In this document: positions 8,104 through 28,457 of the stretch, in pieces
How the letters are laid out: each line of letters starts with the position of its first letter
Position numbering within the stretch: position 1 is the stretch's first letter
DNA from: a virus
Taxonomy: Duplodnaviria; Heunggongvirae; Uroviricota; Caudoviricetes
Length of the DNA stretch: 28,457 nucleotides
Strand: one strand, 5' to 3'
Virus record (IMG/VR): IMGVR_UViG_2698536484_000010
Location: 1 to 28,457 of that record
Notes under the pieces: model-generated
Seen by the model: only the letters and a program-made list of their open reading frames with translations
Told to the model about the DNA's origin: nothing
Database searches by the model: none
Position numbers and translations under genes: made by a program

Positions 8104-8126
8104 CCTGTTCTGACGGGTGAAGAATC

Positions 8127-8327: not shown

Positions 8328-8329
8328 GC

Positions 8330-10283: not shown

Positions 10284-11780
10284 ATGACGATAAGCTTTAA
10301 CTCCATTCCGTCGAATACGCTGGTTCCGATTTTTTATGCGGAAATGGATAACTCGGCGGCGAATACTGCACAGGACAGCGGAGCATCGCTGCTGATTGGT
10401 CATGCCAATAACGGTGCAGAGATTGTTGCCAACAGTCTGGTGCTGATGCCATCGGCAGACTATGCACGCCAGATTTGTGGTGCGGGAAGTCAGTTGTCGC
10501 GTATGGTCGAGGCTTATCGCCAGACCGACCCGTTTGGTGAACTGTATGTGATTGCCGTTCCTGAATCCACGGGCGCGGCGGCAACAGTTACGCTGACGGT
10601 GACCGGAGCGGCAACCGAAACCGGCACGGTGAATGTTTATGTGGGACGTACCCGCGTGCAGGCACCGGTGACCAACGGCGATAACGTCGCGACGATTGCC
10701 AGCAGTATCAAAGATGCCATCAATGCCGTTCCGACCCTGCCGTTTACTGCCTCATCTTCGGCAGGCGTGATCACACTGACCGCGCGTCATAAGGGGCTTT
10801 GCGGGAATGAAATTCCTGTCAGCCTCAATTACTACGGCTTTGGTGGGGGCGAAGTGCTGCCAGCGGGCGTACAGATTGCCGTGGCGACGGGTACCGCCGG
10901 AACGGGCGCTCCTGTTCTCACCGGCGCGGTGGCTGCAATGGCGGATGAGCCGTTTGATTATATCGGCCTGCCGTTCAACGACACGGCCTCCGTTAACACG
11001 CTGGTGACCGAGATGAACGATACCAGCGGTCGCTGGAGCTATGCGCGTCAGCTGTATGGTCATGTGTATACGGCAAAGATCGGCACGCTGTCAGAACTGG
11101 TGACCGCAGGTGACCAGTTTAACCAGCAGCACATTACCCTGGCGGGATACGAAAAAGAGACCCAGACGCCTGCCGACGAGCTGGCGGCAAGCCGTACCGC
11201 CCGCGCAGCAGTGTTTATTCGCAACGATCCGGCACGTCCCACGCAGACCGGTGAGCTGGTGGGTATGCTGCCTGCGCCGAAGGGGAAACGGTTCACGATG
11301 ACCGAACAACAGACCCTGCTGTCGCATGGCGTGGCAACGGCGTATGTCGAAAGCGGGGTGCTGCGCATTCAGCGTGATGTCACCACGTACAGGAAAAATG
11401 CTTACGGTGTTGCGGATAACAGCTACCTCGACAGCGAGACGCTGCATACCAGCGCGTATGTGCTGCGCAAACTGAAATCCGTCATTACCAGTAAGTACGG
11501 GCGTCACAAGCTTGCCAGCGACGGTACCCGCTTTGGTCCCGGTCAGGCGATTGTCACACCGGCGGTGATCAAAGGGGAACTGCTGACAACCTACCGTCAG
11601 CTTGAGCGTGCGGGGATCGTGGAAAACTACGAACTGTTTAAGCAGTACCTGGTTGTGGAGCGTGATGCCAGCGATCCGAACCGCCTGAACACGCTGTTCC
11701 CGCCTGACTATGTTAACCAGTTGCGTGTCTTTGCCGTGGTTAACCAGTTCCGTCTTCAGTATTCAGAGGAGTCTGCATAA
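10284..11780 (+). CDS. Contractile tail sheath protein (Mu gpL-like)
   Basis: 498 aa; size, position before the tube gene and composition typical of Mu-like sheath proteins. Confidence 0.85.
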   Translation: MTISFNSIPSNTLVPIFYAEMDNSAANTAQDSGASLLIGHANNGAEIVANSLVLMPSADYARQICGAGSQLSRMVEAYRQTDPFGELYVIAVPESTGAAATVTLTVTGAATETGTVNVYVGRTRVQAPVTNGDNVATIASSIKDAINAVPTLPFTASSSAGVITLTARHKGLCGNEIPVSLNYYGFGGGEVLPAGVQIAVATGTAGTGAPVLTGAVAAMADEPFDYIGLPFNDTASVNTLVTEMNDTSGRWSYARQLYGHVYTAKIGTLSELVTAGDQFNQQHITLAGYEKETQTPADELAASRTARAAVFIRNDPARPTQTGELVGMLPAPKGKRFTMTEQQTLLSHGVATAYVESGVLRIQRDVTTYRKNAYGVADNSYLDSETLHTSAYVLRKLKSVITSKYGRHKLASDGTRFGPGQAIVTPAVIKGELLTTYRQLERAGIVENYELFKQYLVVERDASDPNRLNTLFPPDYVNQLRVFAVVNQFRLQYSEESA

Positions 11781-12136
11781 TGGCCCGTATCGGGGGAACC
11801 TGTTATTTCAAAATTGACGGTCAACAGCTATCGCTGACCGGCGGCATTGAGGTGCCCATGAACAGGACGGTCAATGATGACATCATCGGCCTGGACGGTT
11901 CAGTGGACCGCAAGGAAACTCACCGTGCGCCTTATGTCAAAGGGACTTTCAAGGTACCGAAGAATTTTCCGGTGAGCAAAATCACCTCGTCTGATGAGAT
12001 GACCATCACTGCCGAGCTGGCGAACGGTCAGGTCTATGTATTGTCGTCTGCCTGGCTGCACGGTGAAGCGAACCATAATGCCGAAGAAGGCACGGTCGAT
12101 ATTGAATTTCACGGTGAAGAAGGGGATTACCAGTGA
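11780..12136 (+). CDS. Tail tube protein (Mu gpM-like)
   Basis: 118 aa; coupled to the sheath gene; canonical position. Confidence 0.8.
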   Translation: MARIGGTCYFKIDGQQLSLTGGIEVPMNRTVNDDIIGLDGSVDRKETHRAPYVKGTFKVPKNFPVSKITSSDEMTITAELANGQVYVLSSAWLHGEANHNAEEGTVDIEFHGEEGDYQ

Positions 12137-12456
12137 TTGAGCTTGTACTTAAAAAACCGATCATCGCCCACAAAGAAACACTGCATGTGTTGGAAATACG
12201 TGAGCCTACGTATGACGAGATTGAGGCGCTGGGGTTCCCTTTCTCTGTTTCGCCTGATGGTGGTATGAAAATGGACAGTCAGGTGGCGCTGAAATATATC
12301 CCGCTTCTGGCCGGGATCCCGCGCTCGTCTGCAGCGCAGATGACGAAGCTGGATATTTTCAAGGCAGGCATGATTGTAATGCGTTTTTTTACCGGCTTGG
12401 AGACGGAAGAGACCTCCGGAAGCGATTCTACAATGTCGCGTGGTTCTGGAAATTAA
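12133..12456 (+). CDS. Tail assembly chaperone, short form
   Basis: 107 aa; canonical position between tube and tape measure; contains T7 slippery run near the 3' end. Confidence 0.65.
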   Translation: MIELVLKKPIIAHKETLHVLEIREPTYDEIEALGFPFSVSPDGGMKMDSQVALKYIPLLAGIPRSSAAQMTKLDIFKAGMIVMRFFTGLETEETSGSDSTMSRGSGN

Positions 12457-12548
12457 ACCCCCTTGAACTTCGCCGGACGGCTATTTCTCACTTTGCTGAT
12501 CTGGAGGCAGAGGCCGTCCGTATAAATGAGGAGATGAAGCATGGCTGA
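12384..12548 (+). other. -1 frameshift site (T_TTT_TTT at 12384-12390) and extension ORF giving the long chaperone form
   Basis: The -1 frame is open from 12390 to the stop at 12546-12548 (about 52 codons, no ATG start), ending just inside the tape-measure gene; the same arrangement as lambda G/GT and P2 E/E+E'. Confidence 0.55.
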
Positions 12549-14448
12549 TAATTTTCAGCTGAAAGCCATCATCACCGCCGTTGACAGGCTATCCGGCCCG
12601 CTTAAAGGTATGCAGCGTCAGCTTAAGGGATTTCAGAAAGAAGTCTCCAGCCTTGCTCTGGGCGCTGCCGGGGCTGGTACTGCAATAATGGGGGCACTGG
12701 CACTCCCTGTAAAATCAGCCATCACCCTTGAATCGAAGATGGCTGATGTCCGCAAAGTGGTGGACGGTCTGGATACGCCGGATGCATTTAAGGCCATGAC
12801 GGAGCAGGTACGCGCTTTGTCTACAGAGCTTCCCATGTCTGCAGACGGGATCGCGGAAATTGTGGCGGCTGGCGGTCAGGCCGGGATTGCACGTGATGAA
12901 CTGATGCAGTTTGCCACTGATGCGGTGAAGATGGGCGTGGCCTTTGATACAACGGCTGAAGAGTCCGGGCAGATGATGGCCCAGTGGCGTACTGCGTTTA
13001 ATATGACACAGGATGAAGTGGCTGGGCTGGCTGACAAAATCAACTACCTTGGTAATACCGGCCCGGCGAATGCGAAGAAAATCTCCGATATTGTTACGCG
13101 TATTGGTCCTTTAGGTGGTGTTGCTGGTGTGGCTTCCGGCGAAATCGCGGCGATGGGGGCAACCATTGCCGGGATGGGCGTGGAGTCAGAAATTGCCGCC
13201 ACAGGGATCAAGAACTTCATGCTTTCCCTGACCGCGGGAAATTCCGCGACAAAATCGCAGAAACAGGCATTGCGTTTTCTGCGGATCAATCCGAAGAAAT
13301 TAGCTACTGATATGCAGAAAGATGCCCGGGGCACCATGCTGTCTGTACTGGATGCGATGGCTAAAGTGCCTAAAGAAAAACAGGCAGCTGTGCTGAATGC
13401 CCTGTTCGGGAAAGAGTCTCTGGGCGCGATAGCACCTCTGCTGACTAACCTTGATTTGTTGCGTACCAACTTCAGGCGGGTTGCGGATTCCCAGCAATAT
13501 GGCAGTTCGATGCAGAAGGAATATGCTTCGAGGGCAGCGACGACGGAAAACCAGCTTTTACTTCTGCAAAATCAACTTGATGCCATTTCTTCCACGCTGG
13601 GGGAAACGTTTCTTCCTGAGGTTAATGATGGTCTTGAAGCGGTAAAACCGCTCCTTGAGGAAGTGAGAACGTTTGTCCGTGAAAACCCGGAGCTCGTTAA
13701 GACCATTGCTAAAATCGGTCTGGCCTTACTGACGGTGGGAGCCGCTGCAGGCTCTTTGTCCAGAATTATGAAAGTTCTCGGCGGTGTGATGAATATGACG
13801 CCTGCTAAGGGGCTGATTGCTCTTCTGGTTGGTGGCGCTTACCTCATTATTGATAACTGGGAAACCGTAGGTCCTGTCATAAAAAAAGTCTGGCACGTGG
13901 TGGATGAAACGGCGCAGGCGATGGGGGGATGGGAAACTGTTCTGAAAGCGATTGCCCTGTTTATGGCAACCAAATGGGTTGCTGACGTTACCAAATCCAT
14001 TACCGCAGTGACCAGAGAGATGCGTACGCTGGGGAAGGTATCGGCAGAAACGGGATTGATGGGGAAAGGCCGCGGCTTTATCGGGAAGGCCGGGGTATAT
14101 GGTTTTCTGGGAACCCTGATGTATGAGCCGGTTAAAGATACTCTGGAAAGTGTTGTTCCTGAAGATACGGTTAACTGGCTGGATAATAAAGGGCTGTTTC
14201 TGGCTTCAGACTGGACGCCTTTTTTTGATCGTAAAGAGTACGAGCAGTATCAGGCCAGCCTGAGTCAGTACAAACCCAATGTTCCGCTGTTGAATCCATC
14301 TTCTTCCATGACACAGCACAGCGAGCTGAAAGTCACGTTCGAGAATGCTCCGCCAGGTATGAAGATAATTGATGTACCGGGAAAAGCCGATCCCCTGATG
14401 AAAATCACGCACGATGTGGGGTATTCCCCTTTTCGTTTTCCACGATAA
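12541..14448 (+). CDS. Tail tape measure protein
   Basis: 635 aa; Ala/Gly-rich, helical and TM-like segments; follows the chaperone pair. Confidence 0.85.
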   Translation: MADNFQLKAIITAVDRLSGPLKGMQRQLKGFQKEVSSLALGAAGAGTAIMGALALPVKSAITLESKMADVRKVVDGLDTPDAFKAMTEQVRALSTELPMSADGIAEIVAAGGQAGIARDELMQFATDAVKMGVAFDTTAEESGQMMAQWRTAFNMTQDEVAGLADKINYLGNTGPANAKKISDIVTRIGPLGGVAGVASGEIAAMGATIAGMGVESEIAATGIKNFMLSLTAGNSATKSQKQALRFLRINPKKLATDMQKDARGTMLSVLDAMAKVPKEKQAAVLNALFGKESLGAIAPLLTNLDLLRTNFRRVADSQQYGSSMQKEYASRAATTENQLLLLQNQLDAISSTLGETFLPEVNDGLEAVKPLLEEVRTFVRENPELVKTIAKIGLALLTVGAAAGSLSRIMKVLGGVMNMTPAKGLIALLVGGAYLIIDNWETVGPVIKKVWHVVDETAQAMGGWETVLKAIALFMATKWVADVTKSITAVTREMRTLGKVSAETGLMGKGRGFIGKAGVYGFLGTLMYEPVKDTLESVVPEDTVNWLDNKGLFLASDWTPFFDRKEYEQYQASLSQYKPNVPLLNPSSSMTQHSELKVTFENAPPGMKIIDVPGKADPLMKITHDVGYSPFRFPR

Positions 14449-14472
14449 CGCAGTCCTTTTTGAGGTCAGTCT

Positions 14473-15849
14473 ATGGATTTATCCTCATTTCCCACCCGAC
14501 CTTCATTACTTTCGTCGTCTTCAGGCTGGCGTGACAGGCTTCAGGACGCGTCATTTCGCGGCGTGCCGTTTAAGGTTGAAGAAGAAAGTGCGGGAACCGG
14601 TCGCCGTGTGGAAACACATGAATACCCGAACCGCGACAAGCCCTATACCGAAGATCTGGGAAAAGTCACTTTCCGCCCGTCCATCACAGCTTATGTGGTG
14701 GGAGATGACTGCTTTGACCAGCGCGATCGCCTGATTGAAGCGCTGAATAAACCCGGTCCCGGCACGCTTGTCCACCCGACATATGGTGAGCTGAAAGTCT
14801 GTGTTGACGGGGAAGTTCGGGTCAGCACATCGAAAAGTGAAGGGCGTATTGTCCGCTTTGACCTGAAGTTTGTCGAAGCAGGAGAACTCTCTTACCCCAC
14901 ATCAGGTGCGGCGACGGCGCAGACGCTGATGTCATCCTGTTCTGCACTGGATGACTGCATTAGTGACAGCTTCAGCGGTTTCAGTATCGATGGTGTGGCG
15001 GATTTCGTGCAGAACGACGTTATCGGTAATGCCAGCATAATGCTGGGGTATGTTTCTGATGCGATGAAAGTGGTGGATTCTGCCGTATCGGATGCCGCCA
15101 GGCTGTTGCAGGGGGATATCTCGGTACTTCTGCCGCCGCCATCGTCAGGCAAAAATTTCGTTGAGCAGGTGCAGAAAATGTGGCGTACCGGGAAACGCCT
15201 TTATGGTAACGCCAGCGACCTGGTTACCATGATCAAAACGCTTTCCGGTGTCAGCCTCGGCAGCGATCTGCAACCGCGCGGCGTCTGGAAAACGGACAGT
15301 AAAACCACCGCCACGGCGACGCAGCAGCGTAACGTGGTTGCCAGCACCCTTCGTACGACCGCAATCAGCGAAGTGGCGTATGCCGTCACCCGATTGCCTG
15401 CGCCAACAACTTCCGCGGTGATGCAGAATTCCGCAGTGGGGCAGGCAACAACACCCGCGCAGAGCACTGGCTGGCCTTCCGTCACGCATCCGGCACTGAA
15501 CAATGCACCGGCGGTGAAAAACACGGTTGACCTGCCGACGTGGGAAGAACTGACTGACATTCGCGACACACTGAATACGGCAATTGATAAGGAGTTGTCC
15601 CGTACAACCAGTGATGCGCTGTTTCTGGCGCTGCGCCGGGTGAAAGCAGATCTGAATGCGGATATCAACACGCGCCTTGAACAGTCTGCACGGATCATTC
15701 AGCGCACACCGGATGAGGTTTTACCCGCGCTGGTGCTGGCGGCTACCTGGTTTGATAACGCGGCGCGTGACGCGGACATTATCCGGCGTAATGCCATTAC
15801 GCATCCCGGCTTTGTGCCGGTGATCCCTCTGAAGGTGCCAGTGCAATGA
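14473..15849 (+). CDS. DNA circularisation-like tail protein (Mu gpN-like)
   Basis: 458 aa; position after the tape measure in Mu-type tail clusters. Confidence 0.65.
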   Translation: MDLSSFPTRPSLLSSSSGWRDRLQDASFRGVPFKVEEESAGTGRRVETHEYPNRDKPYTEDLGKVTFRPSITAYVVGDDCFDQRDRLIEALNKPGPGTLVHPTYGELKVCVDGEVRVSTSKSEGRIVRFDLKFVEAGELSYPTSGAATAQTLMSSCSALDDCISDSFSGFSIDGVADFVQNDVIGNASIMLGYVSDAMKVVDSAVSDAARLLQGDISVLLPPPSSGKNFVEQVQKMWRTGKRLYGNASDLVTMIKTLSGVSLGSDLQPRGVWKTDSKTTATATQQRNVVASTLRTTAISEVAYAVTRLPAPTTSAVMQNSAVGQATTPAQSTGWPSVTHPALNNAPAVKNTVDLPTWEELTDIRDTLNTAIDKELSRTTSDALFLALRRVKADLNADINTRLEQSARIIQRTPDEVLPALVLAATWFDNAARDADIIRRNAITHPGFVPVIPLKVPVQ

Positions 15850-16925
15850 ACGACAATGTCACGCTACGGGTAAATGGCCGGGAGTGGAATGGCTGGACAT
15901 CGGTGCGCATCGGTGCCGGTATTGAACGGCTGGCGCGGGATTTCAGTGTGGAGATCACTCGCCAGTGGCCGGGAGATGAGGGTATCACCACGCTTCAGCC
16001 GCGCATTAAAAACGGTTCAAAAGTGGAAGTGCTGATTGGTGATGAGCTGGTGATCACCGGCTGGGTGGAGGCGACGCCCGTTCGTTACGATGCCCGTTCG
16101 GTCAGCACCGGTATTGCCGGACGTAGTCTGACGGCTGACCTGATTGACTGTGCAGCCGAACCGACACAGTTTAACGGACGCTCGCTGGTGCAGATTGCGC
16201 AGGCGCTTGCTGCGCCTTTCGGCATTGAGGTGGTGAACAGCGGTGCGCCGTCGGGTGTTATTCCTGATGTTCAGCCTGATCACGGTGAAACGGTGATTGA
16301 GGTAATCAACAAAATACTCGGTCAGCAGCAGGCACTGGCTTACGACGACCCGCACGGCAGGCTGGTGATTGGCGGTATTGGCTCAACGCGGGCACATACC
16401 GCGCTGGTACTCGGGGAAAACATCCTTTCCTGTGATACGGAGAAGAGTATCCGGGAGCGGTTTTCTGTTTACCAGGTGGCGGGGCAGCGTGCCGGAAACG
16501 ACGATGATTTCGGTGAGGCCACCACCACCGCGCTGCGGGCCCGCACAGAGGACGCATTTATTGCCCGTTACCGTCCGATGTATATCAGGCAGACAGGGCA
16601 GGCTACGGGGGCAGGCTGTATTGCCCGTGCGGACTTTGAAGCCAGACAACGGGCGGCGCGGACGGATGAAACCACCTATGTGGTGCAGGGCTGGCGACAG
16701 GGTAACGGTACGCTGTGGCAGCCCAACCAGCGGGTGATTGTCTTTGATCCGGTCTGTGGTTTCGACAATACCGAACTGCTTGTTTCGGAAGTCACGTTTA
16801 CTCAGGACCAGAACGGCACCCTGACGGAAATCCGTGTCGGCCCACCTGATGCTTATCTGCCTGAACCCGAAGCCCCCGGCGCGCGAAAAAAGAAAAAAGC
16901 CAGAGTACAGGAGGACCCGTTCTGA
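15846..16925 (+). CDS. Baseplate hub / tail protein (Mu gpP-like)
   Basis: 359 aa; coupled start; canonical position. Confidence 0.7.
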   Translation: MNDNVTLRVNGREWNGWTSVRIGAGIERLARDFSVEITRQWPGDEGITTLQPRIKNGSKVEVLIGDELVITGWVEATPVRYDARSVSTGIAGRSLTADLIDCAAEPTQFNGRSLVQIAQALAAPFGIEVVNSGAPSGVIPDVQPDHGETVIEVINKILGQQQALAYDDPHGRLVIGGIGSTRAHTALVLGENILSCDTEKSIRERFSVYQVAGQRAGNDDDFGEATTTALRARTEDAFIARYRPMYIRQTGQATGAGCIARADFEARQRAARTDETTYVVQGWRQGNGTLWQPNQRVIVFDPVCGFDNTELLVSEVTFTQDQNGTLTEIRVGPPDAYLPEPEAPGARKKKKARVQEDPF

Positions 16926-17473
16926 TGAGGACGATTGAAGCCATGCAGCGACAACTCCTCGGCCTGATTGGGCGGGCCGTGGTGAAAAGCATCAGTGCCG
17001 CCACGAAATGTCAGACCGTGGATGTGTCTCTGATTGCCGGTGAACCCAAAGCCGGGGTTGAACATCTTGAACCCTACGGTTTTACCGCAAGGGCAAACAG
17101 CGGTGCGGAAGCGGTGGTGTTGTTTCCGGATGGCGACCGTTCTCATGCGGTGGTTGTTACGGTGTCGGACCGGCGCTACCGCCTGAAAGGGCTGCAGACG
17201 GGTGAGGTGGCTGTCTATGACGATCAGGGGCAGTCCGTGACGCTGACCCGGGAGGGGATCGTGGTGGACGGTGCAGGTAAAACGATCACGTTTCGCAATG
17301 CGCCTAAGGCTCGTTTTGAAATGGACCTGGAAGTGACCGGACAGGTGAAAGACCTGTGCGACTCCAGCGGCACCACCATGTCAGCGATGCGGCTTGCCTA
17401 TAACGGGCATCGTCACAGAGAGAACGGTCAGGGCAGTAACACCGACAAACCTGATAAAGCGATGGAGGCATGA
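16925..17473 (+). CDS. Baseplate assembly protein V / spike
   Basis: 182 aa; SD aggagga 9 nt upstream; canonical position. Confidence 0.7.
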   Translation: MRTIEAMQRQLLGLIGRAVVKSISAATKCQTVDVSLIAGEPKAGVEHLEPYGFTARANSGAEAVVLFPDGDRSHAVVVTVSDRRYRLKGLQTGEVAVYDDQGQSVTLTREGIVVDGAGKTITFRNAPKARFEMDLEVTGQVKDLCDSSGTTMSAMRLAYNGHRHRENGQGSNTDKPDKAMEA

Positions 17474-17898
17474 TGGAACTGTGGCTGACGGTGAACGGTA
17501 AACGCACCTGCGCCAGCGCACCGCTGGATCCGCTGACCCGTGCCGTGGTGATTTCCCTGTTCACCTGGCGGCGGGCTGAACCTGATGACAATGCCGACGT
17601 CCCGATGGGATGGTGGGGGGATACCTGGCCTGCGGTACAGAATGACCGTTACGGCTCCCGACTGTGGCTGCTTCAGCGCAGCAAACTGACCAATCAGCTG
17701 GTGCAGACGGTAAGGGGGTATATCCGCGAATGCCTGCAATGGATGATTGATGACGGCGTGGTGTCCCGTATTGATCTGGATATCCGCCGCACCGGGATTA
17801 ATGAACTGGGTAACAGTATCACTCTCTGGCGTCGTGACGGACCGGTAATGATTTCTTTTGATGATCTGTGGAGTGCGATAACGCATGGCGGACAGTGA
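17470..17898 (+). CDS. Baseplate protein (Mu gp46 / GPW-like)
   Basis: 142 aa; coupled; position. Confidence 0.65.
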   Translation: MMELWLTVNGKRTCASAPLDPLTRAVVISLFTWRRAEPDDNADVPMGWWGDTWPAVQNDRYGSRLWLLQRSKLTNQLVQTVRGYIRECLQWMIDDGVVSRIDLDIRRTGINELGNSITLWRRDGPVMISFDDLWSAITHGGQ

Positions 17899-18943
17899 AT
17901 TTCAGCGCCCGACGCTGGCAGAAAATATCAGTATGCTCCGTAACGATTTATTCGCCAGGCTGGACGTCAGCGACACGCTCCGGCGCATGGATGAAGACGT
18001 GCGGGCAAAGGTGTATGCGGCGGCGCTGCATACGGTTTACGGTTACATCGATTATCTGGCAATGAACATGCTGCCTGACCTGTGCGATGAGTCCTGGCTG
18101 GCGCGACATGCTGCGATGAAACGGTGTCCGCGCAAGGGAGCCACGGCTGCCAGTGGGTATATGCGCTGGGAAGGTGTCAGCGATGGCCTGAAGGTGACCG
18201 CCGGGAGCGTGATTCAGCGCGATGACCTGGTTCAGTACACGGCAACTGCCGATGCAACCAGCTCCGGTGGTGTCCTGCGTGTGCCGATCACTTGCTCAAC
18301 TACAGGCGCGGTCGGTAACGCTGACGACGGTACGGCATTAATCCTGGTCACGCCGGTGAATGGTCTGCCGTCTTCCGGCGTGGCAGATACCCTGACAGGT
18401 GGATTTGATACTGAAGAGCTGGAAACGTGGCGCGCCCGCGTCATTGAGCGGTATTACTGGACGCCTCAGAGCGGGGCTGACGGGGACTATGTTGTCTGGG
18501 CTAAAGAAGTTCCCGGCATTACCCGCGCATGGACATACCGACACTGGATGGGAACGGGGACTGTCGGTGTGATGATTGCCAGCAGCGACCTGATTAACCC
18601 CATTCCGGAAGAATCAACGGAAACGGCGGCAAGACAACACATTGAGCCACTGGCTCCGGTGGCAGGCTCTGATTTGTATGTATTCAGGCCGGTGGCACAT
18701 ACGGTGGATTTTCATATCCGCGTGACGCCGGACACACCAGAAATACGGGCTGCCATTACCGCGGAGTTGCGTTCGTTCCTGCTGCGTGATGGTTATCCGC
18801 AGGGAGAACTGAAGGTATCGCGTATCAGTGAGGCGATTTCCGGTGCGAACGGGGAATACAGCCATCAGTTGCTTGCACCGGCGGACAATATCTCCATTGC
18901 AAAAAATGAACTGGCGGTTCTGGGGACGATTTCATGGACGTGA
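17885..18943 (+). CDS. Baseplate J-like protein (Mu gp47-like)
   Basis: 352 aa; coupled; position. Confidence 0.75.
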
Positions 18944-19518
18944 CAAACGATGATTACATCCGTCTGTTGTCGGCACTGCTGCCGCCCGGTCCGGCGTGGT
19001 CAGCCAGCGATCCGGCGATTGCCGGTGCAGCACCGTCATTAACCCGCGTTCATCAGCGTGCGGATGCCCTGATGCGGGAGCTGGATCCGCGCACCACCAC
19101 CGAACTGATAAACCGCTGGGAGCGTCTGTGCGGCCTGCCAGATGAATGTATTCCTACAGGGACACAGACCCTTCGCCAGCGTCAGCAACGGCTGGATGCG
19201 AAGGTTAACCTGTCGGGTGGCATCAACGAGGATTTTTATCTTGCACAGCTTGCTGCCCTGGGCAGACCAGATGCTACCATCACGCGATACGACAAAAGTA
19301 CGTTCACCTGCTCATCGGCCTGTACTGACGCTGTGAACGCGCCTGAATGGCGGTATTACTGGCAGGTCAACATGCCAGCCGCCACCAACACCACCTGGAT
19401 GACATGTGGCGATCCCTGTGATTCCGCACCGCGTATCTGGGGCGACACCGTTGTCGAATGTGTGCTTAACAAACTCTGCCCGTCGCATACCTACGTAATT
19501 TTTAAATATCCGGAGTAA
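18934..19518 (+). CDS. YmfQ-like tail protein (Mu gp48 / P2 gpI-like), Cys-rich C-terminus
   Basis: 194 aa; immediately upstream of the tail fibre gene as in e14-like phages. Confidence 0.7.
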
Positions 19519-19825
19519 TCCATGCATCGTATAGACACGAAAACCGCGCAGAAGGATAAGTTCGGCGCGGGTAAGAACGGTTTTACCCGTGGTAACCCCC
19601 AGACCGGCACGCCTGCCACCGATCTGGATGATGACTACTTTGACATGTTGCAGGAGGAGCTTTGCAGCGTTGTGGAGGCGTCCGGTGCCAGCCTGGAGAA
19701 GGGGCGGCACGACCAGCTACTTACCGCGCTTCGCGCGCTGCTGTTAAGCCGCAAGAATCCGTTTGGCGATATCAAATCGGATGGCACGGTGAAAATGGCT
19801 CTCGAAAACCTTGGTTTGGGAGAAG
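19064..19825 (+). repeat. Direct repeat copy 1 (762 bp: YmfQ 3' part + Sc + pix); copy 2 at 20689-21450
   Basis: Identical translations in all frames across both copies; boundaries read from sequence. Confidence 0.75.
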
Positions 19826-20130
19826 CGGCAAAACGGAATGTGGGAACAGGGGAAAATCAGATACCTAGTATGTCAGAATGGACATCTGGGACAGGATGGA
19901 ATAGAGACCCGTCGGGGAGAATAATACAGCGGGGATTTGCTATGACATCAAGTCAAACTAACATTTTATTCCCGATACCATTTCCGTATGACGATTTCGA
20001 AGTTATCGTTTGTGCAGCAGATACAGGAGCAAATAAAGGGGCCGTAAATGTGTTGCGAAAATCGAGGCAGGGGTTTTCTGTTTCACAGGTTGGAAGTATG
20101 CCAGTCGCATACAGATGGATAGCGGGGTGA
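19522..20130 (+). CDS. Tail fibre protein: constant N-terminus (Sc, aa 1-97) fused to variable C-terminus Sv1
   Basis: 202 aa; first 100 aa identical to the ORF at 21147; the two diverge directly after the 26-bp crossover site at 19799-19824. Confidence 0.75.
19799..19824 (+). other. Pin crossover site (pix-like): CTCTCGAAAACC-TT-GGTTTGGGAGAA
   Basis: Two imperfectly symmetric 12-bp half sites flanking a 2-bp core, same architecture as gix/hix; lies exactly at the Sc/Sv junction and at the inverted-repeat boundary. Confidence 0.7.
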
Positions 20131-20573
20131 TTGAAATGTATAAATTTGATCCAAAGAATGCATTATTCTATCCTGCTGCGTCAATTTCCGATTATAAATT
20201 GAGCGAAGATGAAATCGCCACATTCACTGATATTAGCGAGGAGGATGCAACCGAGTTTTTAGGATTCCCGCCGACTGGAAAAATCAGAGGGTCGGACGGT
20301 TATGGCAATCCTGCATGGGTTGAAATACCTCCACCATCACATGAGGAACTTATTGAACAGGCCGAATCAGAGAGGCAATTATTGATTAACCATGCCAACG
20401 AATACATGAACAGTAAACAATGGCCTGGTAAAGCGGCTATTGGTCGTCTGAATGGTGAGGAACTGGCGCAATATAATTTGTGGCTGGATTATCTGAACGC
20501 ACTGGAACTGGTTGATACCTCCAGTGCGCCAGATATTGAATGGCCTACGCCTCCGGCAGTTCAGGCCAGATGA
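20115..20573 (+). CDS. Tail fibre assembly chaperone Tfa1
   Basis: 152 aa; overlaps the fibre gene 3' end; identical inverted copy at 22521-22979. Confidence 0.75.
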
Positions 20574-20687
20574 CATCCGGCGCGGTGCTGGTATCTGTTG
20601 CCGTCACCGCGTCAATGTAATCCAGCACAGCGTTAAGTCGGGTGGTTTCTGCCTGCGTCAGTTTACGTCCGGCCTGCAATTTCAGTT
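20545..20687 (-). pseudogene. 3' fragment (about 47 codons) of the Tfa2 gene, inverted copy
   Basis: Reverse complement of 22407-22549; copy ends abruptly at 20687. Confidence 0.5.
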
Positions 20688-20688
20688 A

Positions 20689-21143
20689 ATGCCCTGATGC
20701 GGGAGCTGGATCCGCGCACCACCACCGAACTGATAAACCGCTGGGAGCGTCTGTGCGGCCTGCCAGATGAATGTATTCCTACAGGGACACAGACCCTTCG
20801 CCAGCGTCAGCAACGGCTGGATGCGAAGGTTAACCTGTCGGGTGGCATCAACGAGGATTTTTATCTTGCACAGCTTGCTGCCCTGGGCAGACCAGATGCT
20901 ACCATCACGCGATACGACAAAAGTACGTTCACCTGCTCATCGGCCTGTACTGACGCTGTGAACGCGCCTGAATGGCGGTATTACTGGCAGGTCAACATGC
21001 CAGCCGCCACCAACACCACCTGGATGACATGTGGCGATCCCTGTGATTCCGCACCGCGTATCTGGGGCGACACCGTTGTCGAATGTGTGCTTAACAAACT
21101 CTGCCCGTCGCATACCTACGTAATTTTTAAATATCCGGAGTAA
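20689..21143 (+). pseudogene. Truncated duplicate of the YmfQ-like gene (equivalent to codons 46-194 of 18934-19518; translated copy 20697-21143)
   Basis: 148 aa identical to the C-terminal part of the gene at 18934; no N-terminus or proper start. Confidence 0.55.
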
Positions 21144-21146
21144 TCC

Positions 21147-21947
21147 ATGCATCGTATAGACACGAAAACCGCGCAGAAGGATAAGTTCGGCGCGGGTAAG
21201 AACGGTTTTACCCGTGGTAACCCCCAGACCGGCACGCCTGCCACCGATCTGGATGATGACTACTTTGACATGTTGCAGGAGGAGCTTTGCAGCGTTGTGG
21301 AGGCGTCCGGTGCCAGCCTGGAGAAGGGGCGGCACGACCAGCTACTTACCGCGCTTCGCGCGCTGCTGTTAAGCCGCAAGAATCCGTTTGGCGATATCAA
21401 ATCGGATGGCACGGTGAAAATGGCTCTCGAAAACCTTGGTTTGGGAGAAGGTTCGGCATTACCCGTTGGTGTGCCTGTTCCGTGGCCTTCCGCCACTCCG
21501 CCAACAGGCTGGCTGAAATGCAACGGTGCGGCTTTTTCTGCTGAAGAATACCCGGAACTGGCAAAGGCTTACCCGACAAATAAATTGCCTGATTTACGTG
21601 GTGAGTTTATTCGTGGCTGGGATGACGGACGTGGTATGGATACGGGGAGGGCAATATTATCAGCTCAGGGCGATGCCATACGTAATATCTATGGTGAGTT
21701 CAAGACTGTAAACACCGAAAATTATTCAATATGGGAATCAGCAGGCTCGTTTAAGGGGGCAGTGGTGCCTTTGAATCCCTCAACGAACAATAGTTATTTC
21801 TCCTTAACCAGAAGTATGGTGACTGAAAGAACAGATGGCGCTGTTTACCCAAAAGTGATTGGCCTTGATGCTTCAAGAATTGTTCCAACTGCAAACGAAA
21901 ACCGTCCTCGTAACATTGCCTTTAATTATATCGTGAGAGCTGCCTGA
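21147..21947 (+). CDS. Tail fibre protein: Sc fused to alternative C-terminus Sv2
   Basis: 266 aa; C-terminal region matches the receptor-binding domain pattern of P2 H / Mu S-like fibres ([17 protein letters not shown] ... [10 protein letters not shown]). Confidence 0.8.
21424..21449 (+). other. Pin crossover site (pix-like), identical 26-mer to 19799-19824
   Basis: Same 26-bp sequence at the Sc/Sv2 junction. Confidence 0.7.
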
Positions 21948-22549
21948 TGAATAAAGCCGTATTAAATAACGAACTCATTGCCATAAAAGCGGGAGACATT
22001 ACCATTTATAATTATGATGGTGAAACGCGGGAATATATTTCCACATCAACTGAATATCTTGCGGTTGGCGTCGGTATCCCGGAATGTTCTTGTTTAGATG
22101 CACCAGTTACACATAAAGCTGGTTATGCAATCTGCCGTTCTGCAGATTTTAACTCATGGGAATATGTGCCAGACCATCGCGGTGAAATCATCTATAGCAC
22201 CGAAACAGGAGAATCGAAAGAAATCACAGCTCCGGGTGATTACCCTGAAAATACAACCACTATCGCCCCGTTAACGCCATATGATAAATGGGATGGTGAG
22301 AAATGGGTGACGGATACCGGGGCACAGCATAGCGCCGCAGTAGATGCAGCAGAAGCACAGCGCCAGTCGCTGATTGATACTGCAATGGCTTCCATCAGTC
22401 TGATTCAACTGAAATTGCAGGCCGGACGTAAACTGACGCAGGCAGAAACCACCCGACTTAACGCTGTGCTGGATTACATTGACGCGGTGACGGCAACAGA
22501 TACCAGCACCGCGCCGGATGTCATCTGGCCTGAACTGCCGGAGGCGTAG
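21947..22549 (+). CDS. Tail fibre assembly chaperone Tfa2
   Basis: 200 aa; N-terminus [10 protein letters not shown] typical of Tfa proteins; 3' end converges on and overlaps Tfa1 on the opposite strand. Confidence 0.75.
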   Translation: MNKAVLNNELIAIKAGDITIYNYDGETREYISTSTEYLAVGVGIPECSCLDAPVTHKAGYAICRSADFNSWEYVPDHRGEIIYSTETGESKEITAPGDYPENTTTIAPLTPYDKWDGEKWVTDTGAQHSAAVDAAEAQRQSLIDTAMASISLIQLKLQAGRKLTQAETTRLNAVLDYIDAVTATDTSTAPDVIWPELPEA

Positions 22550-22979
22550 GCCATTCAATATCTGGCGCACTGGAGGTATCAACCAGTTCCAGTGCGTTCA
22601 GATAATCCAGCCACAAATTATATTGCGCCAGTTCCTCACCATTCAGACGACCAATAGCCGCTTTACCAGGCCATTGTTTACTGTTCATGTATTCGTTGGC
22701 ATGGTTAATCAATAATTGCCTCTCTGATTCGGCCTGTTCAATAAGTTCCTCATGTGATGGTGGAGGTATTTCAACCCATGCAGGATTGCCATAACCGTCC
22801 GACCCTCTGATTTTTCCAGTCGGCGGGAATCCTAAAAACTCGGTTGCATCCTCCTCGCTAATATCAGTGAATGTGGCGATTTCATCTTCGCTCAATTTAT
22901 AATCGGAAATTGACGCAGCAGGATAGAATAATGCATTCTTTGGATCAAATTTATACATTTCAATCACCCCGCTATCCAT
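22521..22979 (-). CDS. Tail fibre assembly chaperone Tfa1 (inverted cassette copy)
   Basis: 152 aa identical to 20115-20573. Confidence 0.7.
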
Positions 22980-23281
22980 CTGTATGCGACTGGCATACTT
23001 CCAACCTGTGAAACAGAAAACCCCTGCCTCGATTTTCGCAACACATTTACGGCCCCTTTATTTGCTCCTGTATCTGCTGCACAAACGATAACTTCGAAAT
23101 CGTCATACGGAAATGGTATCGGGAATAAAATGTTAGTTTGACTTGATGTCATAGCAAATCCCCGCTGTATTATTCTCCCCGACGGGTCTCTATTCCATCC
23201 TGTCCCAGATGTCCATTCTGACATACTAGGTATCTGATTTTCCCCTGTTCCCACATTCCGTTTTGCCGCTTCTCCCAAACC
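22964..23281 (-). CDS. Silent Sv1 cassette: promoterless, start-less variable C-terminal fibre segment that becomes fused to Sc on inversion
   Basis: Identical to codons 98-202 of 19522-20130; the ORF-track N-terminal extension to 23323 runs across the crossover site and is not credible. Confidence 0.6.
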
Positions 23282-23295
23282 AACGTTTATGAAAA
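23270..23295 (+). other. Pin crossover site in inverted orientation: TTCTCCCAAACC-AA-CGTTTATGAAAA
   Basis: Inner half site is the exact reverse complement of GGTTTGGGAGAA; core AA is the complement of TT; lies 55 bp upstream of pin. Confidence 0.65.
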
Positions 23296-23349
23296 TGCAG
23301 AAATAACGAGCAAATGGCATCATTCCTGCTTTTGTCAGGGAGATCTACC

Positions 23350-23904
23350 ATGCTTATTGGCTATGTACGTGTGTCAACAAATGACCAGAACACAGATCTA
23401 CAACGTAATGCGCTGAACTGTGCAGGATGTGAGCTGATTTTTGAAGACAAGATAAGCGGTACAAAGTCCGACAGACCAGGACTGAAAAAGCTGCTCAGGA
23501 CATTATCGGCAGGTGACACGCTGGTGGTCTGGAAACTGGACCGACTGGGGCGCAGTATGCGGCATCTTGTCGTGCTGGTGGAGGAGTTGCGCGAACGAGG
23601 CATCAACTTTCGTAGTCTGACGGATTCAATTGATACCAGTACCCCAATGGGGCGCTTTTTCTTTCATGTGATGGGTGCCCTGGCTGAAATGGAGCGTGAA
23701 CTGATTGTTGAACGAACAAAAGCTGGACTGGAAGCAGCTCGCGCACAGGGACGAATTGGTGGACGTCGCCCCAAACTTACACCAGAACAATGGGAGCAGG
23801 CCGGACGATTAATTGCATCAGGCGTTCCTCGCCAGAAGGTGGCGATCATCTATGATGTTGGTATATCGACACTGTATAAGAAGTTTCCGGTCGGAGATAA
23901 ATGA
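23350..23904 (+). CDS. pin: Serine DNA invertase (Pin/Gin/Hin/Cin family)
   Basis: MLIGYVRVSTNDQNTDLQRNAL... with catalytic Ser in the YVRVS motif and C-terminal HTH; SD GGGAG 7 nt upstream of ATG 23350. Confidence 0.9.
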   Translation: MLIGYVRVSTNDQNTDLQRNALNCAGCELIFEDKISGTKSDRPGLKKLLRTLSAGDTLVVWKLDRLGRSMRHLVVLVEELRERGINFRSLTDSIDTSTPMGRFFFHVMGALAEMERELIVERTKAGLEAARAQGRIGGRRPKLTPEQWEQAGRLIASGVPRQKVAIIYDVGISTLYKKFPVGDK

Positions 23905-23964
23905 AACCGTAGCACGTCGTATGCAAGAAGATCGTGCTGCGGTTTATGCTTATCACTTAAAGAC

Positions 23965-24834
<870 letters not shown>

Positions 24835-24914
24835 CTAAGTCTTTGAATTTACATAGTACAAAAAAGATACTTTTCCTCATAATGTGAATTAATTTTATGT
24901 TTCGTTTGATGATT

Positions 24915-24980
24915 GGACCGGTCTCGAAAACCGGAGTGGGGGCAACTCCACCGGGGGTTCAAATCCCCCTCTCTCCGCCA
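24915..24980 (+). other. att core: 3' 66 nt of a tRNA-Ser(CGA) gene (anticodon stem-loop through CCA), no 5' half
   Basis: GGACCGGTCTCGAAAACCGG (anticodon CGA) ... CCGGGGGTTCAAATCCCCCTCTCTCCGCCA; upstream sequence cannot form the acceptor stem. Confidence 0.7.
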
Positions 24981-25025
24981 AAATTCAATCACTTATACAT
25001 CATTAAGTCAGTGACAAAAATCACA

Positions 25026-25057
25026 CTTGGAATTACTTGGAATATTTTCTTGGAATA
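25026..25057 (+). repeat. Three direct copies of CTTGGAAT (25026, 25036, 25050), candidate integrase arm-type sites
   Basis: Read directly; overlap the int stop codon, lying between int and the att core. Confidence 0.4.
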
Positions 25058-26058
25058 TTTTCAGGTAACGGGACATCAAGTGTCGGTGAAACTTTAACCT
25101 TCCTGTCATAGATTAGCACTTGCCCCTCGGTTTTGTGACCAGAGAAAAGTTGCTTATCCCGACTGCTTCCTTCATAGTCTGAAATTCCTTTCGCCTTCAG
25201 ATCATGAAAGGTGAAGTCGGTTAAAATACCTGAAATTTTGCCTGCGCGATTTCTTGCTTCTACCCACATTTCGTTAAAGCCTTTGTACATATATCGGTTG
25301 CCGTATTGATTGCTGATTACATAGGCGGATGTTGGTAACTGTTTTGCTTTTTCGATCGCCGCCTGTAATCGTGGACTCCATGCTTTTATCTGTTTTTTTC
25401 CTGTTTTCCCTTGCTGGATAAAGATCCCGTCGTTTCCAATCTGCTCCCATTTCAGCGATAACACATCGGAAACCCTCGCTGCACACAGATAGGCAATTTC
25501 CATTGCGATAAAAACAGGAAGAGGTGCAACGCTTAATACTGCCTGGTATTCTTTGTCGGTTACATATCGTTCGCGGTTTTTGGCCTTGAATTTACTTACA
25601 CCTGCACATGGGTTACCCTTCACGTACCCTCGCTCATACCCCCAACTGTAAACGCGGGACATACTGCTTTTTTCATGGTTGGCTTGCGTTTTACTCTGCT
25701 CCCCTCTCTTGTCCATGTATCGACGGATGTGTTCTGGTTTTATGGAATCTGCCGGCACCTTACCGAATACGGCAAGCAACTTTTTTTGATGTTGCAGATA
25801 ATCTTTTTGTGTTCTTGGACTGAGGTCACTGTAATAGGCGCTGGCGAGGAATTTTTCCCACAAGCGACCGAATGTCATTGCACGATCGCGATTATTTACA
25901 GTTTCCTCATACTTTTTCCATAAAGCAGCTAAACCATCCTTGATGGCGGTTAGTGTTACAGATTCTCTGGATGTTGGTTTCCATGCATAACTATATTTAT
26001 TTGGGTATACATTTGGAGGTAATTTTTCGTGTTCAGGATTTTTCCTTCGTCTTCCCAT
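25033..26058 (-). CDS. int: Tyrosine integrase (lambda Int family)
   Basis: 341 aa; box I AARVSDVLSLKW, box II TFHDLK...GHKTEGQVLIY aligns with lambda TFHELR...GHKSDTMASQY. Confidence 0.9.
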   Translation of the reverse strand: MGRRRKNPEHEKLPPNVYPNKYSYAWKPTSRESVTLTAIKDGLAALWKKYEETVNNRDRAMTFGRLWEKFLASAYYSDLSPRTQKDYLQHQKKLLAVFGKVPADSIKPEHIRRYMDKRGEQSKTQANHEKSSMSRVYSWGYERGYVKGNPCAGVSKFKAKNRERYVTDKEYQAVLSVAPLPVFIAMEIAYLCAARVSDVLSLKWEQIGNDGIFIQQGKTGKKQIKAWSPRLQAAIEKAKQLPTSAYVISNQYGNRYMYKGFNEMWVEARNRAGKISGILTDFTFHDLKAKGISDYEGSSRDKQLFSGHKTEGQVLIYDRKVKVSPTLDVPLPENIPRKYSK

Positions 26059-26261
26059 CAGATCGCACCAAAATTCGGCTCTACCTCGCGTGGTGGTAAA
26101 GTTTTATTGCAGGTAAATAGCTCCCGGCTGACAATCGGTTTGCCACTACGATTGGTATAGAACGGAAGCCCGTTTTCCATTAACCATTTTCGCTGGTGGC
26201 TTGCATATTTGCAGCCCGTTAATATTAGCAATTCATCTTCGGTTAAAAATAAGCTGCTCAT
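26058..26261 (-). CDS. Excisionase-like small DNA-binding protein
   Basis: 67 aa; stop overlaps int start (ATGA); position and size typical of xis. Confidence 0.5.
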   Translation of the reverse strand: MSSLFLTEDELLILTGCKYASHQRKWLMENGLPFYTNRSGKPIVSRELFTCNKTLPPREVEPNFGAI

Positions 26262-26319
26262 AGCTATATCTCATAACCGCCGCTAACTATATACGGTTAG
26301 CGGCAATTAGGGTTGAACA

Positions 26320-28440
26320 TTAAAAATCAGCCTGACTCGGGATCAGTTTTTGCCAGATAGCTGAAACGTATTTTGCCTGGTAACGGGCGTCATCAAGTGC
26401 ATTATGGCGCTCACCTTCGAATGGAATAGCCGTTCTGGCATCGAAGTCTATGGCTTTCCCCAGCTCAACGATTGTGCGTACATCGCGATCGTTGTAGTAA
26501 CGCCACGGGCAGGGGATCCCCTGCCGTTCGTATGAACGGCGCAAAATCGTGTTGTCGAAGTTGGCTCCATTTCCCCAGACATGAACAAAAAATTCACCGG
26601 AGTTTTCGTCGATAAATTCCCGCAATTGTAACAGTGCATCATCTAACGGGATTTCATCGGCCATAATGGCAGATTGCGCTTCGCGTGATTGTTTAAGCCA
26701 CCATTTAATGGTGTCCCGATCAATGACTCCGCCAGCAGTTTCCAGATCGATAGTCTTACTAAATTCCGGTCCCATATCTCCGGTTTGCGGATCGAAAAAT
26801 ATTGCACCTATTGAGATAATCGGGGCATCGGGATTTTTTCCCATGGTTTCAAGGTCGATCATCAGATGAATCCCCGCTCTGCTGGTGGATGTGAGATTAT
26901 GATGACCGTTCGCCTTAATTAAGGGATCTGACGCCTCGCCAGTTTCACTATCGCTGGCATGATGCTGATTGCCGCCAGTGTTCTCCTTGTGCTGATGCGC
27001 AGTGCCTTCCATTTCCTCCGGATCATTTTCCTGAACTTCAGGCTGATTCTCTCCATCGAATATTTCCTGGTATGTTGCGTCACCCATCACCGCACCACAA
27101 TCAGGGCAGTTGCCGCCACCGCTCTGACCGCAGGCGGTGCAGATCTTTTCCGGTTCCTGTTGCACTACTGGTTCAGGTTGTTTCGTTTCTGGCTCGTTTT
27201 GTAACGCATTTGGGCTGTTTTGTTCCGCTTTTTGGTAGTTCCGTTCCGATTCATGCTGGTTCTGGTTCACAGAATCGCGAGTCTGGATCCCCTTGACCCA
27301 TTTCGGATCATTAGGGGCGCTAATCCCCTCAACAAATTCACCACGCGATACAGCAAGTAACTTATCGGCGTCAGGCTGGCTGATATTGGCTGCCTGCATA
27401 ATTTTGTTTACTTCGTCAGCGGTAACTTTTACCGGCCCTGGTTGTGCGGTCGTGTCAGATGCACCAGTATTTTGTTGTGAACCTGAGTATGTACCGTTTT
27501 TGCGGGCGAAATATTCTTCTTTCGTGATTTCAGTAGCCCCAGCAGACAGCGCCTTATCCAGACCAGAAAGTTTGTTTGCGCGACCGTATTTTTCGCCATC
27601 CTTGTCGGTGAAGAGGAAGTAGAACGGCCCCTCACGCTCTACAGATGGTTCAGCTTCCGGCGCGGTTTCATTTTTTGGGATATCAGATACCTCAGTTTCC
27701 ACTGCATCAGTTTGTGTTTCTGATGACTGGAGAACATCAACAGTGCCCAGGTCTGTTTCTTCATTCTCAAACACGCCCTTTGTCGTCAGGTATTCGCAGA
27801 TATATTTGTTCAGTGCTACGGGATCTTTGTGAATGTCGATCGGACGTTCACGGACAAGGCCAAAAATAGTCTGGCGGTCGTAGCGAAGGGCATCAGGCTG
27901 TTTGCGCATTGATGCCGAGATACGCTTCCAGTCTTCGCGGCCGTTGTCGATAACTTCATTTTTTGCCCAGCGATGGATGCTGCCGTCAATGTTTCCGGCA
28001 TCCACATCACCAGGCCAGAGAGCGTAGGCCAGTTCGTCATCCAGTGTTTTCCATGTCTGCTTGTATTCGCGATGAATGGCAGCAATGACCGGGCTGATTT
28101 TTCCTGTTGAATTTTCAGTGTACTGTTGATTGGCTCTGGCGCGGGCGAGATCAACAACAGACGTGTATTTTCCGGTTTCCTTGCGTTCACCTTCGCGACG
28201 TTTTTTCCAGATGCGCATCTCTGCCTGAATTTCGGGCCATTTAGCACCAGGAATACATTTATGCTTAACCCACCCAATGGCGTGCAACTTAAGCTCCGGA
28301 TACATGGCGTTAACTTCTGGCATTTTCATCAACGCTTCAACGATATGTCCGTCGAATGTTGCCATGTCTTCCTGCAACAATTCCTGTGCGCTAATAACCA
28401 TATCAACGGTGATGTTTTCACATGTGTCGAACTTAACCAT
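26320..28440 (-). CDS. Large exonuclease with C-terminal DnaQ-like DEDDh 3'-5' exonuclease domain
   Basis: 706 aa; C-terminal motifs IDLETMG (Exo I), VWGNGANFD (Exo II), HNALDDARY (Exo III with His); central CxxC...CxxC zinc-ribbon-like motif; acidic/polar linker. Confidence 0.7.
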   Translation of the reverse strand: MVKFDTCENITVDMVISAQELLQEDMATFDGHIVEALMKMPEVNAMYPELKLHAIGWVKHKCIPGAKWPEIQAEMRIWKKRREGERKETGKYTSVVDLARARANQQYTENSTGKISPVIAAIHREYKQTWKTLDDELAYALWPGDVDAGNIDGSIHRWAKNEVIDNGREDWKRISASMRKQPDALRYDRQTIFGLVRERPIDIHKDPVALNKYICEYLTTKGVFENEETDLGTVDVLQSSETQTDAVETEVSDIPKNETAPEAEPSVEREGPFYFLFTDKDGEKYGRANKLSGLDKALSAGATEITKEEYFARKNGTYSGSQQNTGASDTTAQPGPVKVTADEVNKIMQAANISQPDADKLLAVSRGEFVEGISAPNDPKWVKGIQTRDSVNQNQHESERNYQKAEQNSPNALQNEPETKQPEPVVQQEPEKICTACGQSGGGNCPDCGAVMGDATYQEIFDGENQPEVQENDPEEMEGTAHQHKENTGGNQHHASDSETGEASDPLIKANGHHNLTSTSRAGIHLMIDLETMGKNPDAPIISIGAIFFDPQTGDMGPEFSKTIDLETAGGVIDRDTIKWWLKQSREAQSAIMADEIPLDDALLQLREFIDENSGEFFVHVWGNGANFDNTILRRSYERQGIPCPWRYYNDRDVRTIVELGKAIDFDARTAIPFEGERHNALDDARYQAKYVSAIWQKLIPSQADF

Positions 28441-28457
28441 GACAGCGTTCTGTACTT

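Follow-up and report, generated by a model that had tools for sequence, protein, structure and literature searches.

Introduction

The P-inversion system of the e14 element of E. coli K-12 comprises the genes ymfQ, stfP/ycfK, tfaP, tfaE, stfE and pinE, and is carried by an element that is itself cryptic. In the Gin/G segment system of phage Mu and the Cin/C segment system of phage P1, a serine invertase is encoded beside a segment that lies between two inverted crossover sites, and the C-terminal part of the fibre is exchanged together with its chaperone. The G segment of Mu is ∼3 kb long. The Min region of p15B and the R64 shufflon have more than two crossover sites and can adopt several arrangements. 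How an assembly can be affected by a switch of this type is seen in E. coli 2020N21-246, in which a P2-like prophage has an invertible fibre segment that recurs on a 3,095-bp 'plasmid' contig, and the chromosome carries the same segment with the same four protein accessions.

Here, a window of 28,457 bp was analyzed, which is the entire contig CYBA01000059.1 of the short-read draft assembly GCA_001286165.1. It contains a tail fibre switch with the same gene order as e14, preceded by an extra block of 1.6 kb. Taken at face value, the contig is multi-site like p15B Min and the R64 shufflon, with three sites and several reachable arrangements; unlike them it has only two variable cassettes, and its third site was not reproduced elsewhere. 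Presence in contig CYBA01000059.1 is not the same as presence in the genome. Judged from the sequence comparisons described below, the extra copy, and with it the second fibre gene and a third pix site, is very probably an assembly artefact in which scaffolding or gap filling has acted on inversion heterogeneity.

Results

A two-site Pin switch in an SfII/SfIV-like prophage

The left 17 kb of the window are 96-98% identical to the Mu-tailed Shigella/E. coli phages SfIV, SfII, SfI and vB_EcoM-720R4. Many E. coli chromosomes match the right end (24915-28457) at 100% identity, which identifies E. coli as the host. For the switch region, the nearest complete genome is only ∼97% identical.

The full-length ymfQ gene (18934-19518, plus strand; Pfam PF10076) encodes a Mu gp48-like baseplate wedge protein of 194 aa and is considered real. 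The fibre gene Sc-Sv2 (21147-21947, plus strand) encodes 266 aa with a Collar domain. Since it is located directly 3' of full-length ymfQ in the independent Logan contig ERR197252_69, it is judged to be the real, expressed fibre of the unflipped orientation, which is designated state A; the flipped orientation is designated state B. The constant part Sc (101 aa) has its end within the pix core. Sv2 is followed by its cognate chaperone gene tfa2 (21947-22549, plus strand; domains Caudo_TAP_N and Caudo_TAP). The alternative cassette faces the opposite way. It consists, according to ORF and domain searches, of the silent chaperone gene tfa1 (22521-22967, minus strand) and of Sv1 (22964-23320, minus strand), a 118-aa ORF with a Gp53-like_C domain, which has neither a promoter nor a constant part. 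Sv1 and Sv2 are the only variable cassettes in the window. The exact Tfa1 protein recurs widely among Mu-like and P2-like prophages, and the exact Pin protein is also very widespread.

The segment is bounded by pixL (core 21431-21450, plus strand) and by pixR (core 23269-23288, minus strand), which is inverted relative to pixL; both are regarded as real sites. Over the 32 nt of core and flanks, pixL differs from the pixL of E. coli K-12 e14 by one flank base and pixR from its e14 counterpart by two, while in the 12-nt cores there is no difference from e14. The gene pin (23350-23904, plus strand) encodes a Din-family serine DNA invertase of 184 aa with an N-terminal resolvase catalytic domain (PF00239) and a C-terminal helix-turn-helix domain (HTH_7, PF02796). 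Residues 1-181 match the Gin structures 3UJ3 and 4M6F (E = 1e-95), and 177 of the 184 residues are identical to K-12 PinE.

In searches against NCBIfam, the fibre, chaperone and YmfQ proteins received no name at family level, and Pin gave only sub-threshold matches to serine recombinases. Structured RNAs were not detected by Rfam (18500-25500), nor tRNAs by ARAGORN (whole window). A scan for promoters and terminators gave results at or below chance level. A weak terminator-like hairpin is located at 20577-20591, between the two fibre ORFs of the contig.

The organization is that of the Din family: two inverted AAACC-NN-GGTTT-type cores (21431, plus strand, and 23277, inverted) flank the segment, the constant part of the fibre lies outside and the alternative parts with their cognate chaperones lie inside, and the recombinase is a small serine recombinase with a resolvase domain and a helix-turn-helix. 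At the DNA level, ymfQ-Sc is ∼96% and the pin region ∼92% identical to e14. Sv2-tfa2 is 89-93% like stfE-tfaE, whereas the Sv1 cassette is not the one of K-12. In contrast to the cryptic e14, the prophage that carries the switch here is intact, SfII/SfIV-like and Mu-tailed, and has a full late operon. The segment is, with ∼1.8 kb, shorter than that of Mu, and the fibres (202 and 266 aa) are shorter as well. The real element is the known two-site Pin/e14-type tail fibre switch. The extra copy seen in the contig is taken as an artefact and not as a biological difference from e14.

Related genomes carry one copy in either orientation

In 52 related genomes the region is single-copy and spans ∼6.3 kb, compared to 7.9 kb in the window. 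In the relatives L006 and L013 (state B), ymfQ is followed by a 202-aa fibre and tfa1, whereas in L011 and L015 (state A) it is followed by a 266-aa fibre and tfa2. Both orientations thus occur among the relatives, always as one copy, as in Din-family switches. Because these genes are present once in each related genome, in one orientation or the other, the real mechanism is the known one: Pin swaps the DNA between the two inverted pix sites, so that the fibre receives another C-terminal part for receptor binding and the matching chaperone is brought in. The preliminary description of this DNA had proposed a comparison with related phage genomes as a check on a duplication, and in none of these 52 relatives was the duplication found.

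It was considered whether position 19064 is a mosaic boundary in the population as a whole. This was rejected, as the alignments of 1,380 of the 1,489 matching records run through it without interruption. Several 'partial YmfQ' proteins that start near this position had raised the idea of a general hot spot for contig breaks. Their lengths are spread from 99 to 152 aa, which indicates cluster membership and no hot spot at 19064, and this idea was also rejected.

Geometry of the extra block and its junction

The extra block (19064-20687, plus strand) consists of the 3' part of ymfQ, Sc, pix, Sv1, tfa1 and a 3' fragment of tfa2, and equals the flipped, state-B form of the single-copy switch. Self-comparison of the window showed that 19064-19825 and 20689-21450 form a direct repeat with 762 of 762 nt identical, and that 19806-20687 is complementary to 22407-23288 in 881 of 882 nt. 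Repeats so long and identical cannot have arisen by chance. The only mismatch of the inverted repeat, a C versus a G, lies inside the pix core, where the site at 19806 reads AAACCTTGG and the reverse complement of the right-hand site reads AAACGTTGG. A single mismatch at this place is what a crossover by Pin predicts.

Three crossover cores are present in the window, AAACCTTGGTTT at 19806 and 21431 in direct orientation and AAACCAACGTTT at 23277 in inverted orientation. The core of the first copy (19806-19825, plus strand) is a hybrid of the outer half of pixL, the dinucleotide TT and the inner half that adjoins Sv1, and fits the crossover predicted at the central dinucleotide. Downstream of full-length ymfQ, the block contains a Sc-Sv1 fusion fibre ORF of 202 aa (19522-20130, plus strand; Gp53-like_C domain), which corresponds to the state-B product and has its first 101 residues, Sc, in common with the 266-aa fibre. 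It is followed by an exact copy of tfa1 (20127-20573, plus strand; 148 aa, PF02413), identical to the minus-strand copy at 22521-22967; the block copies Sv1-tfa1 exactly. By coordinate mapping, the state-B piece ends with 143 nt of antisense tfa2 (20545-20687, minus strand), which also form the end of the inverted-repeat arm. The state-A piece starts with a second copy of the 3' part of ymfQ (20689-21143, plus strand), in which an ORF at 20697-21143 encodes 148 aa and lacks the first 46 residues of the protein.

At the join, a single A (20688; no strand assigned) has no template in either parent, as both parent sequences go on with a G, and the microhomology amounts to 0 nt.

Most structural elements of the preliminary description were recovered in this comparison, namely the 762-bp direct repeat, the right part of the invertible segment in flipped orientation with Sv1 and Tfa1 on the plus and a Tfa2 3' fragment on the minus strand (borne out by the ORFs and the inverted repeat), the two fibre genes with a common N-terminus and, as a property of the contig, three pix sites, two of them direct and one inverted. 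The 875 bp given for the flipped part is correct if the count starts at the crossover dinucleotide (19813-20687); without the shared pix core, 862 nt remain. A sharp join at 20687/20689 was also correctly described, whereas the 1-2 nt of microhomology ascribed to it do not exist.

The contig is composed of the two inversion states

For a piecewise comparison, the 1,625-nt block was removed from the window and inversion of the resulting single-copy sequence by Pin was simulated, with the crossover modelled at the central TT/AA dinucleotide. The sequence 19064-20687 was identical to this simulated inversion product, and the hybrid pix junction in contig CYBA01000059.1 agreed with the simulated crossover. 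The complete window equals positions 1 to 20687 of state B, the base A, and state A from 19064 to the end, with no further difference. This composition is what a flipped and an unflipped contig set end to end would give, the two having 762 nt in common before they diverge. An identical sequence would result if the segment were truly duplicated in tandem and the distal copy then inverted, and therefore the sequence alone cannot decide between the two.

Independent assemblies of the identical prophage lack the block

Logan contig ERR197252_69 (20,018 bp) is 100% identical to window positions 670-19825 and continues directly with 21451-22312. It contains full-length ymfQ, Sc, pix and Sv2 in this order, and the 1,625-nt block is absent. 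The NCBI contig AAVTUC010000088.1 (GCA_014417105.1, 19,913 bp) corresponds to positions 1-19825 followed by 21451-21538, is also 100% identical and also lacks the block. Logan contig ERR134557_37 (17,249 bp) starts at window position 2592 and matches the window at 100% identity over its first 12,203 nt. Calculated from its length, and not taken from its sequence, its end should lie at ∼19840, which is past 19064 and at about pix; this should be the fork that is expected from mixed orientations. The exact YmfQ protein is encoded on eight contigs, seven of which either go directly into Sc-Sv2 or stop near pix, and the exact Sc-Sv2 protein was found on one other contig only, ERR197252_69. In a grouped listing, five more Logan contigs share the neighbouring genes of ERR197252_69. 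Among the contigs of the 100% identical prophage that were compared, the extra block is present in CYBA01000059.1 only.

Logan takes its contigs as unbranched paths from a simplified k=31 de Bruijn graph, and each 31-mer in them is distinct (PMC12424806). If the 762-nt unit occurred twice per genome, such a graph would branch at 19064 and 19825, and therefore no Logan contig would cross both positions. A multi-site system with at least three crossover sites in the DNA molecule and more than two variable cassettes is not what was found: the site at 19806 is present in CYBA01000059.1 only, with the reservation that the compared contigs may be from sister isolates, and the cassettes are Sv1 and Sv2 only.

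An exact full-length call of the adjacent GIY-YIG gene is found in ERR134556, ERR134557 and ERR4852831 and is absent in ERR197252. The source of the draft GCA_001286165.1 may be one of the former three. Two runs that neighbour ERR197252, ERR197199 and ERR197201, come from public E. coli O55 isolates. The single-copy assemblies could thus be derived from clonal sister isolates and not from the draft's own reads.

The junction is confined to one contig

In 5,426 complete E. coli genomes the junction was not spanned once, and a 24-mer across 20688 had no match in 185,579 species-representative genomes, IMG/VR or the JGI metagenomes. The exact 202-aa Sc-Sv1 protein was found for CYBA01000059.1 only among ∼15 billion proteins, and its 90% cluster has no other member. 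The exact 148-aa truncated YmfQ is likewise on record for this contig only. The novel junction was thus not reproduced in independent data, be it genomes, contig collections or the proteins that depend on it. The ORF predicted at the right end of state B (182 or 183 aa) is absent from the protein collection; as this side lies in a genomic repeat, its absence is uninformative.

Discussion

Of the two readings offered in the preliminary description, the assembly chimera of the two inversion states is favoured, by the exact piecewise identity and by the single copy in assemblies of the 100% identical prophage. According to this reading, the genome would contain one e14-type switch in the order ymfQ, Sc, pixL, the invertible segment (Sv2-tfa2 and, inverted, tfa1-Sv1), pixR and pin. 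The sequenced culture would have held cells in both orientations, so that the short-read graph forked at pix. A left piece, in flipped orientation, would have been read through pix and 862 nt into Sv1-tfa1, and a right piece, in unflipped orientation, would have extended 762 nt leftward via Sc into ymfQ. As Sc-pix is all that the two pieces share before their sequences part, merging would have failed, and the overlap would have been written twice. Scaffolding or gap filling may then have set them end to end, with base 20688 inserted as a single filler. On this reading the join, and not the DNA, would have produced the truncated ymfQ, the second fibre gene and the third pix site. In E. coli 2020N21-246 the same two-orientation problem also produced surplus sequence, but there it was left as a separate contig, whereas here it would have been joined in line, mimicking a tandem duplication.

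Both the software step behind the join and the absence of the junction from the draft's own reads are points that we infer. The accession style, the ERR run numbers and annotation strings such as 'phage terminase%2C large subunit' and 'Uncharacterised protein' suggest an origin of the draft at the Sanger Institute. In the Sanger pipeline, assembly with Velvet is followed by SSPACE and by 120 iterations of GapFiller with only those reads that were not mapped as proper pairs, and its authors caution that greedy steps may create false joins (PMC5320598). Reads from the minority orientation would be precisely those that fail proper-pair mapping. GapFiller extends both edges of a gap base by base and closes the gap only when the extensions overlap (PMC3446322). 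At a gap at pix, the left edge would grow with flipped-state reads and the right edge would grow into Sc/ymfQ, and the two would never overlap. Because of the published overlap rule, a join without Ns does not fit the rules of GapFiller, which counts against the artefact route. A fill based on reads would moreover give a G and not an A at 20688, and this also counts against it. The extensions of 862 and 762 nt differ by exactly 100 nt. The EPEC study ERP001141 used 100-bp reads and Velvet assembly (PMC5343136), and it is likely the source project.

A real clonal tandem duplication in one isolate would require that the flipped-state sequence 19064-20688 was duplicated by illegitimate recombination and that Pin then inverted the distal copy, giving three pix sites and two fibre genes in one late operon. 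This two-step history would produce exactly the structure seen; both fibre ORFs and both chaperones are intact, the weak hairpin mentioned above is the only terminator-like element between them, and the single-copy assemblies may represent sister isolates of the source of the draft. Nevertheless, the junction was found in no other dataset searched (the 5,426 E. coli genomes, three contig collections and proteins), and all other assemblies of the 100% identical prophage that reach ymfQ cross 19064 unbroken, in the case of ERR134557_37 by its computed end. In RecA-independent duplications in E. coli, a junction without microhomology and with an untemplated base is unusual, and here both 0 nt of microhomology and an untemplated base are seen. 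Over 762 and 881 nt the copies have not diverged at all, and a direct repeat of 762 nt is expected to be readily lost by homologous recombination. A duplication would also have to coincide with the one locus at which assemblers meet two orientations. Taken together, this history is very unlikely. With the junction found nowhere else and the assumed microhomology absent, the other reading of the preliminary description, in which a real duplication creates a three-site shufflon-like switch with two co-expressed fibres, is left unsupported. There is a slim chance that a single isolate did carry a real 1,625-bp tandem duplication, by which the Pin switch gained a second, upstream Sc-pix entry point and became a newly formed minimal multi-site shufflon. 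If so, one late operon would make both Sc-Sv1 and Sc-Sv2 fibres with both chaperones, and Pin acting on three sites could reach single-fibre states as well.

The junction might also be present in real minority molecules, either a subpopulation with the duplication or chimeric library fragments, of which the assembler threaded a rare path into the consensus. De Bruijn contigs normally need read support for each k-mer, including those of the junction, and the simplification of the Logan graph might have dropped a low-coverage branch (PMC12424806). On the other hand, assemblers usually discard low-coverage paths instead of favouring them, scaffolding and gap filling can join sequences without k-mer support (PMC5320598, PMC3446322), and no independent trace of the junction was detected in the contig collections or proteins searched, which makes this explanation highly improbable. 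Even less probable is a block contributed by a second, related prophage that shares ymfQ 3'-Sc-pix-Sv1-tfa1 and was spliced in via shared repeats. Window positions 22313-23831 are not covered by the unique Logan contigs recovered, as ERR197252_69 stops at 22312 and the contigs with the GIY-YIG gene begin at 23832 or 23900; this gap suggests another pin/Sv1/tfa1 cassette in the genome, in line with the very wide distribution of the exact Tfa1 and Pin proteins. With a second prophage, however, 19064-19825 would be present in two copies, yet no break occurs there in the k=31 Logan contigs or in the NCBI contig. The complete genomes show no homology boundary near 19064, and the join back to this position would be left unaccounted for.

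An in-line join of the two inversion states as the most probable origin of the block calls for some caution, since phase-variable inversions in mixed cultures can enter public drafts as in-line pseudo-duplications. These yield false truncated genes such as the 148-aa 'YmfQ', false recombination sites and singleton protein clusters such as that of the 202-aa fibre. Scans for new shufflons or duplicated receptor-binding genes therefore need checking against reads or independent assemblies. For the biology of the prophage the weight of the finding is small, as the locus is a textbook host-range switch of the Pin/e14 type in an SfII/SfIV-like prophage. If the duplication were true, it would represent one route from a two-site to a multi-site switch.

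The right end of the window

The end of a second, lambdoid prophage (24915-28457) directly follows the Mu-tailed prophage, and contains a partial tRNA (∼24915-24980), int (25033-26058), a DUF4224 gene (∼26058-26261) and an exonuclease gene (26320-28440). Many E. coli genomes are 100% identical to this stretch, and in those genomes the counterpart is located at tRNA-Ser, adjoining mtfA. Identity to these genomes begins 24 nt within tRNA-Ser, indicating that the tRNA is represented in the window by its 3' part alone. Therefore, no tRNA was detected in the window by ARAGORN. The 3' part of tRNA-Ser is an att-site copy, and the Mu-tailed and lambdoid prophages appear to be inserted in tandem at a single tRNA-Ser site.

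At the end of the Mu-tailed prophage, just downstream of the invertase gene pin, a gene encoding a 257 aa protein with a LEM-3-like GIY-YIG nuclease domain (23965-24738, minus strand) is carried as cargo. In e14 of K-12 this position is occupied by mcrA. The family is common; the exact allele is rare and on record from 3 contigs.

Contig ends and a possible second cassette

None of the unique Logan contigs recovered for the strain covered 22313-23831, which comprises the 3' end of tfa2, tfa1, the variable cassette Sv1, the right crossover site pixR and the 5' part of pin. Logan contig ERR197252_69 ends at 22312, and the contigs with the GIY-YIG gene begin at 23832 or 23900. This coverage gap suggests that the genome has a second, near-identical Sv1-tfa1-pin cassette at another site, which might be a P2-like prophage, for instance. 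P2-like prophages of other strains do encode the exact Tfa1 protein.

At the left end, the first position of contig AAVTUC010000088.1, which belongs to a different NCBI assembly (GCA_014417105.1), is exactly the same base as position 1 of the window. This common start falls within a holin-like gene, and such an identical contig end in separate assemblies is unusual.

Extra records with tail-fibre genes in other strains

The invertible tail-fibre segment of a P2-like prophage in E. coli 2020N21-246, including IS1203, is redundantly present in a 3,095-bp contig with the label 'plasmid unnamed6' (NZ_JBQJRR010000008.1, 1-3095); the chromosome of this strain (NZ_CM125675.1) has the segment with the same four protein accessions. 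The contig is a further by-product of assembly at an invertible cassette for tail fibres. E. coli 13P477T has three small extra records (CP019274, CP019275 and CP019279; 15, 37 and 22 kb), each with near-identical tail-fibre-assembly genes, which are also found on the chromosome. These records may represent phage-plasmids, DNA of induced phages or redundant products of the assembly.
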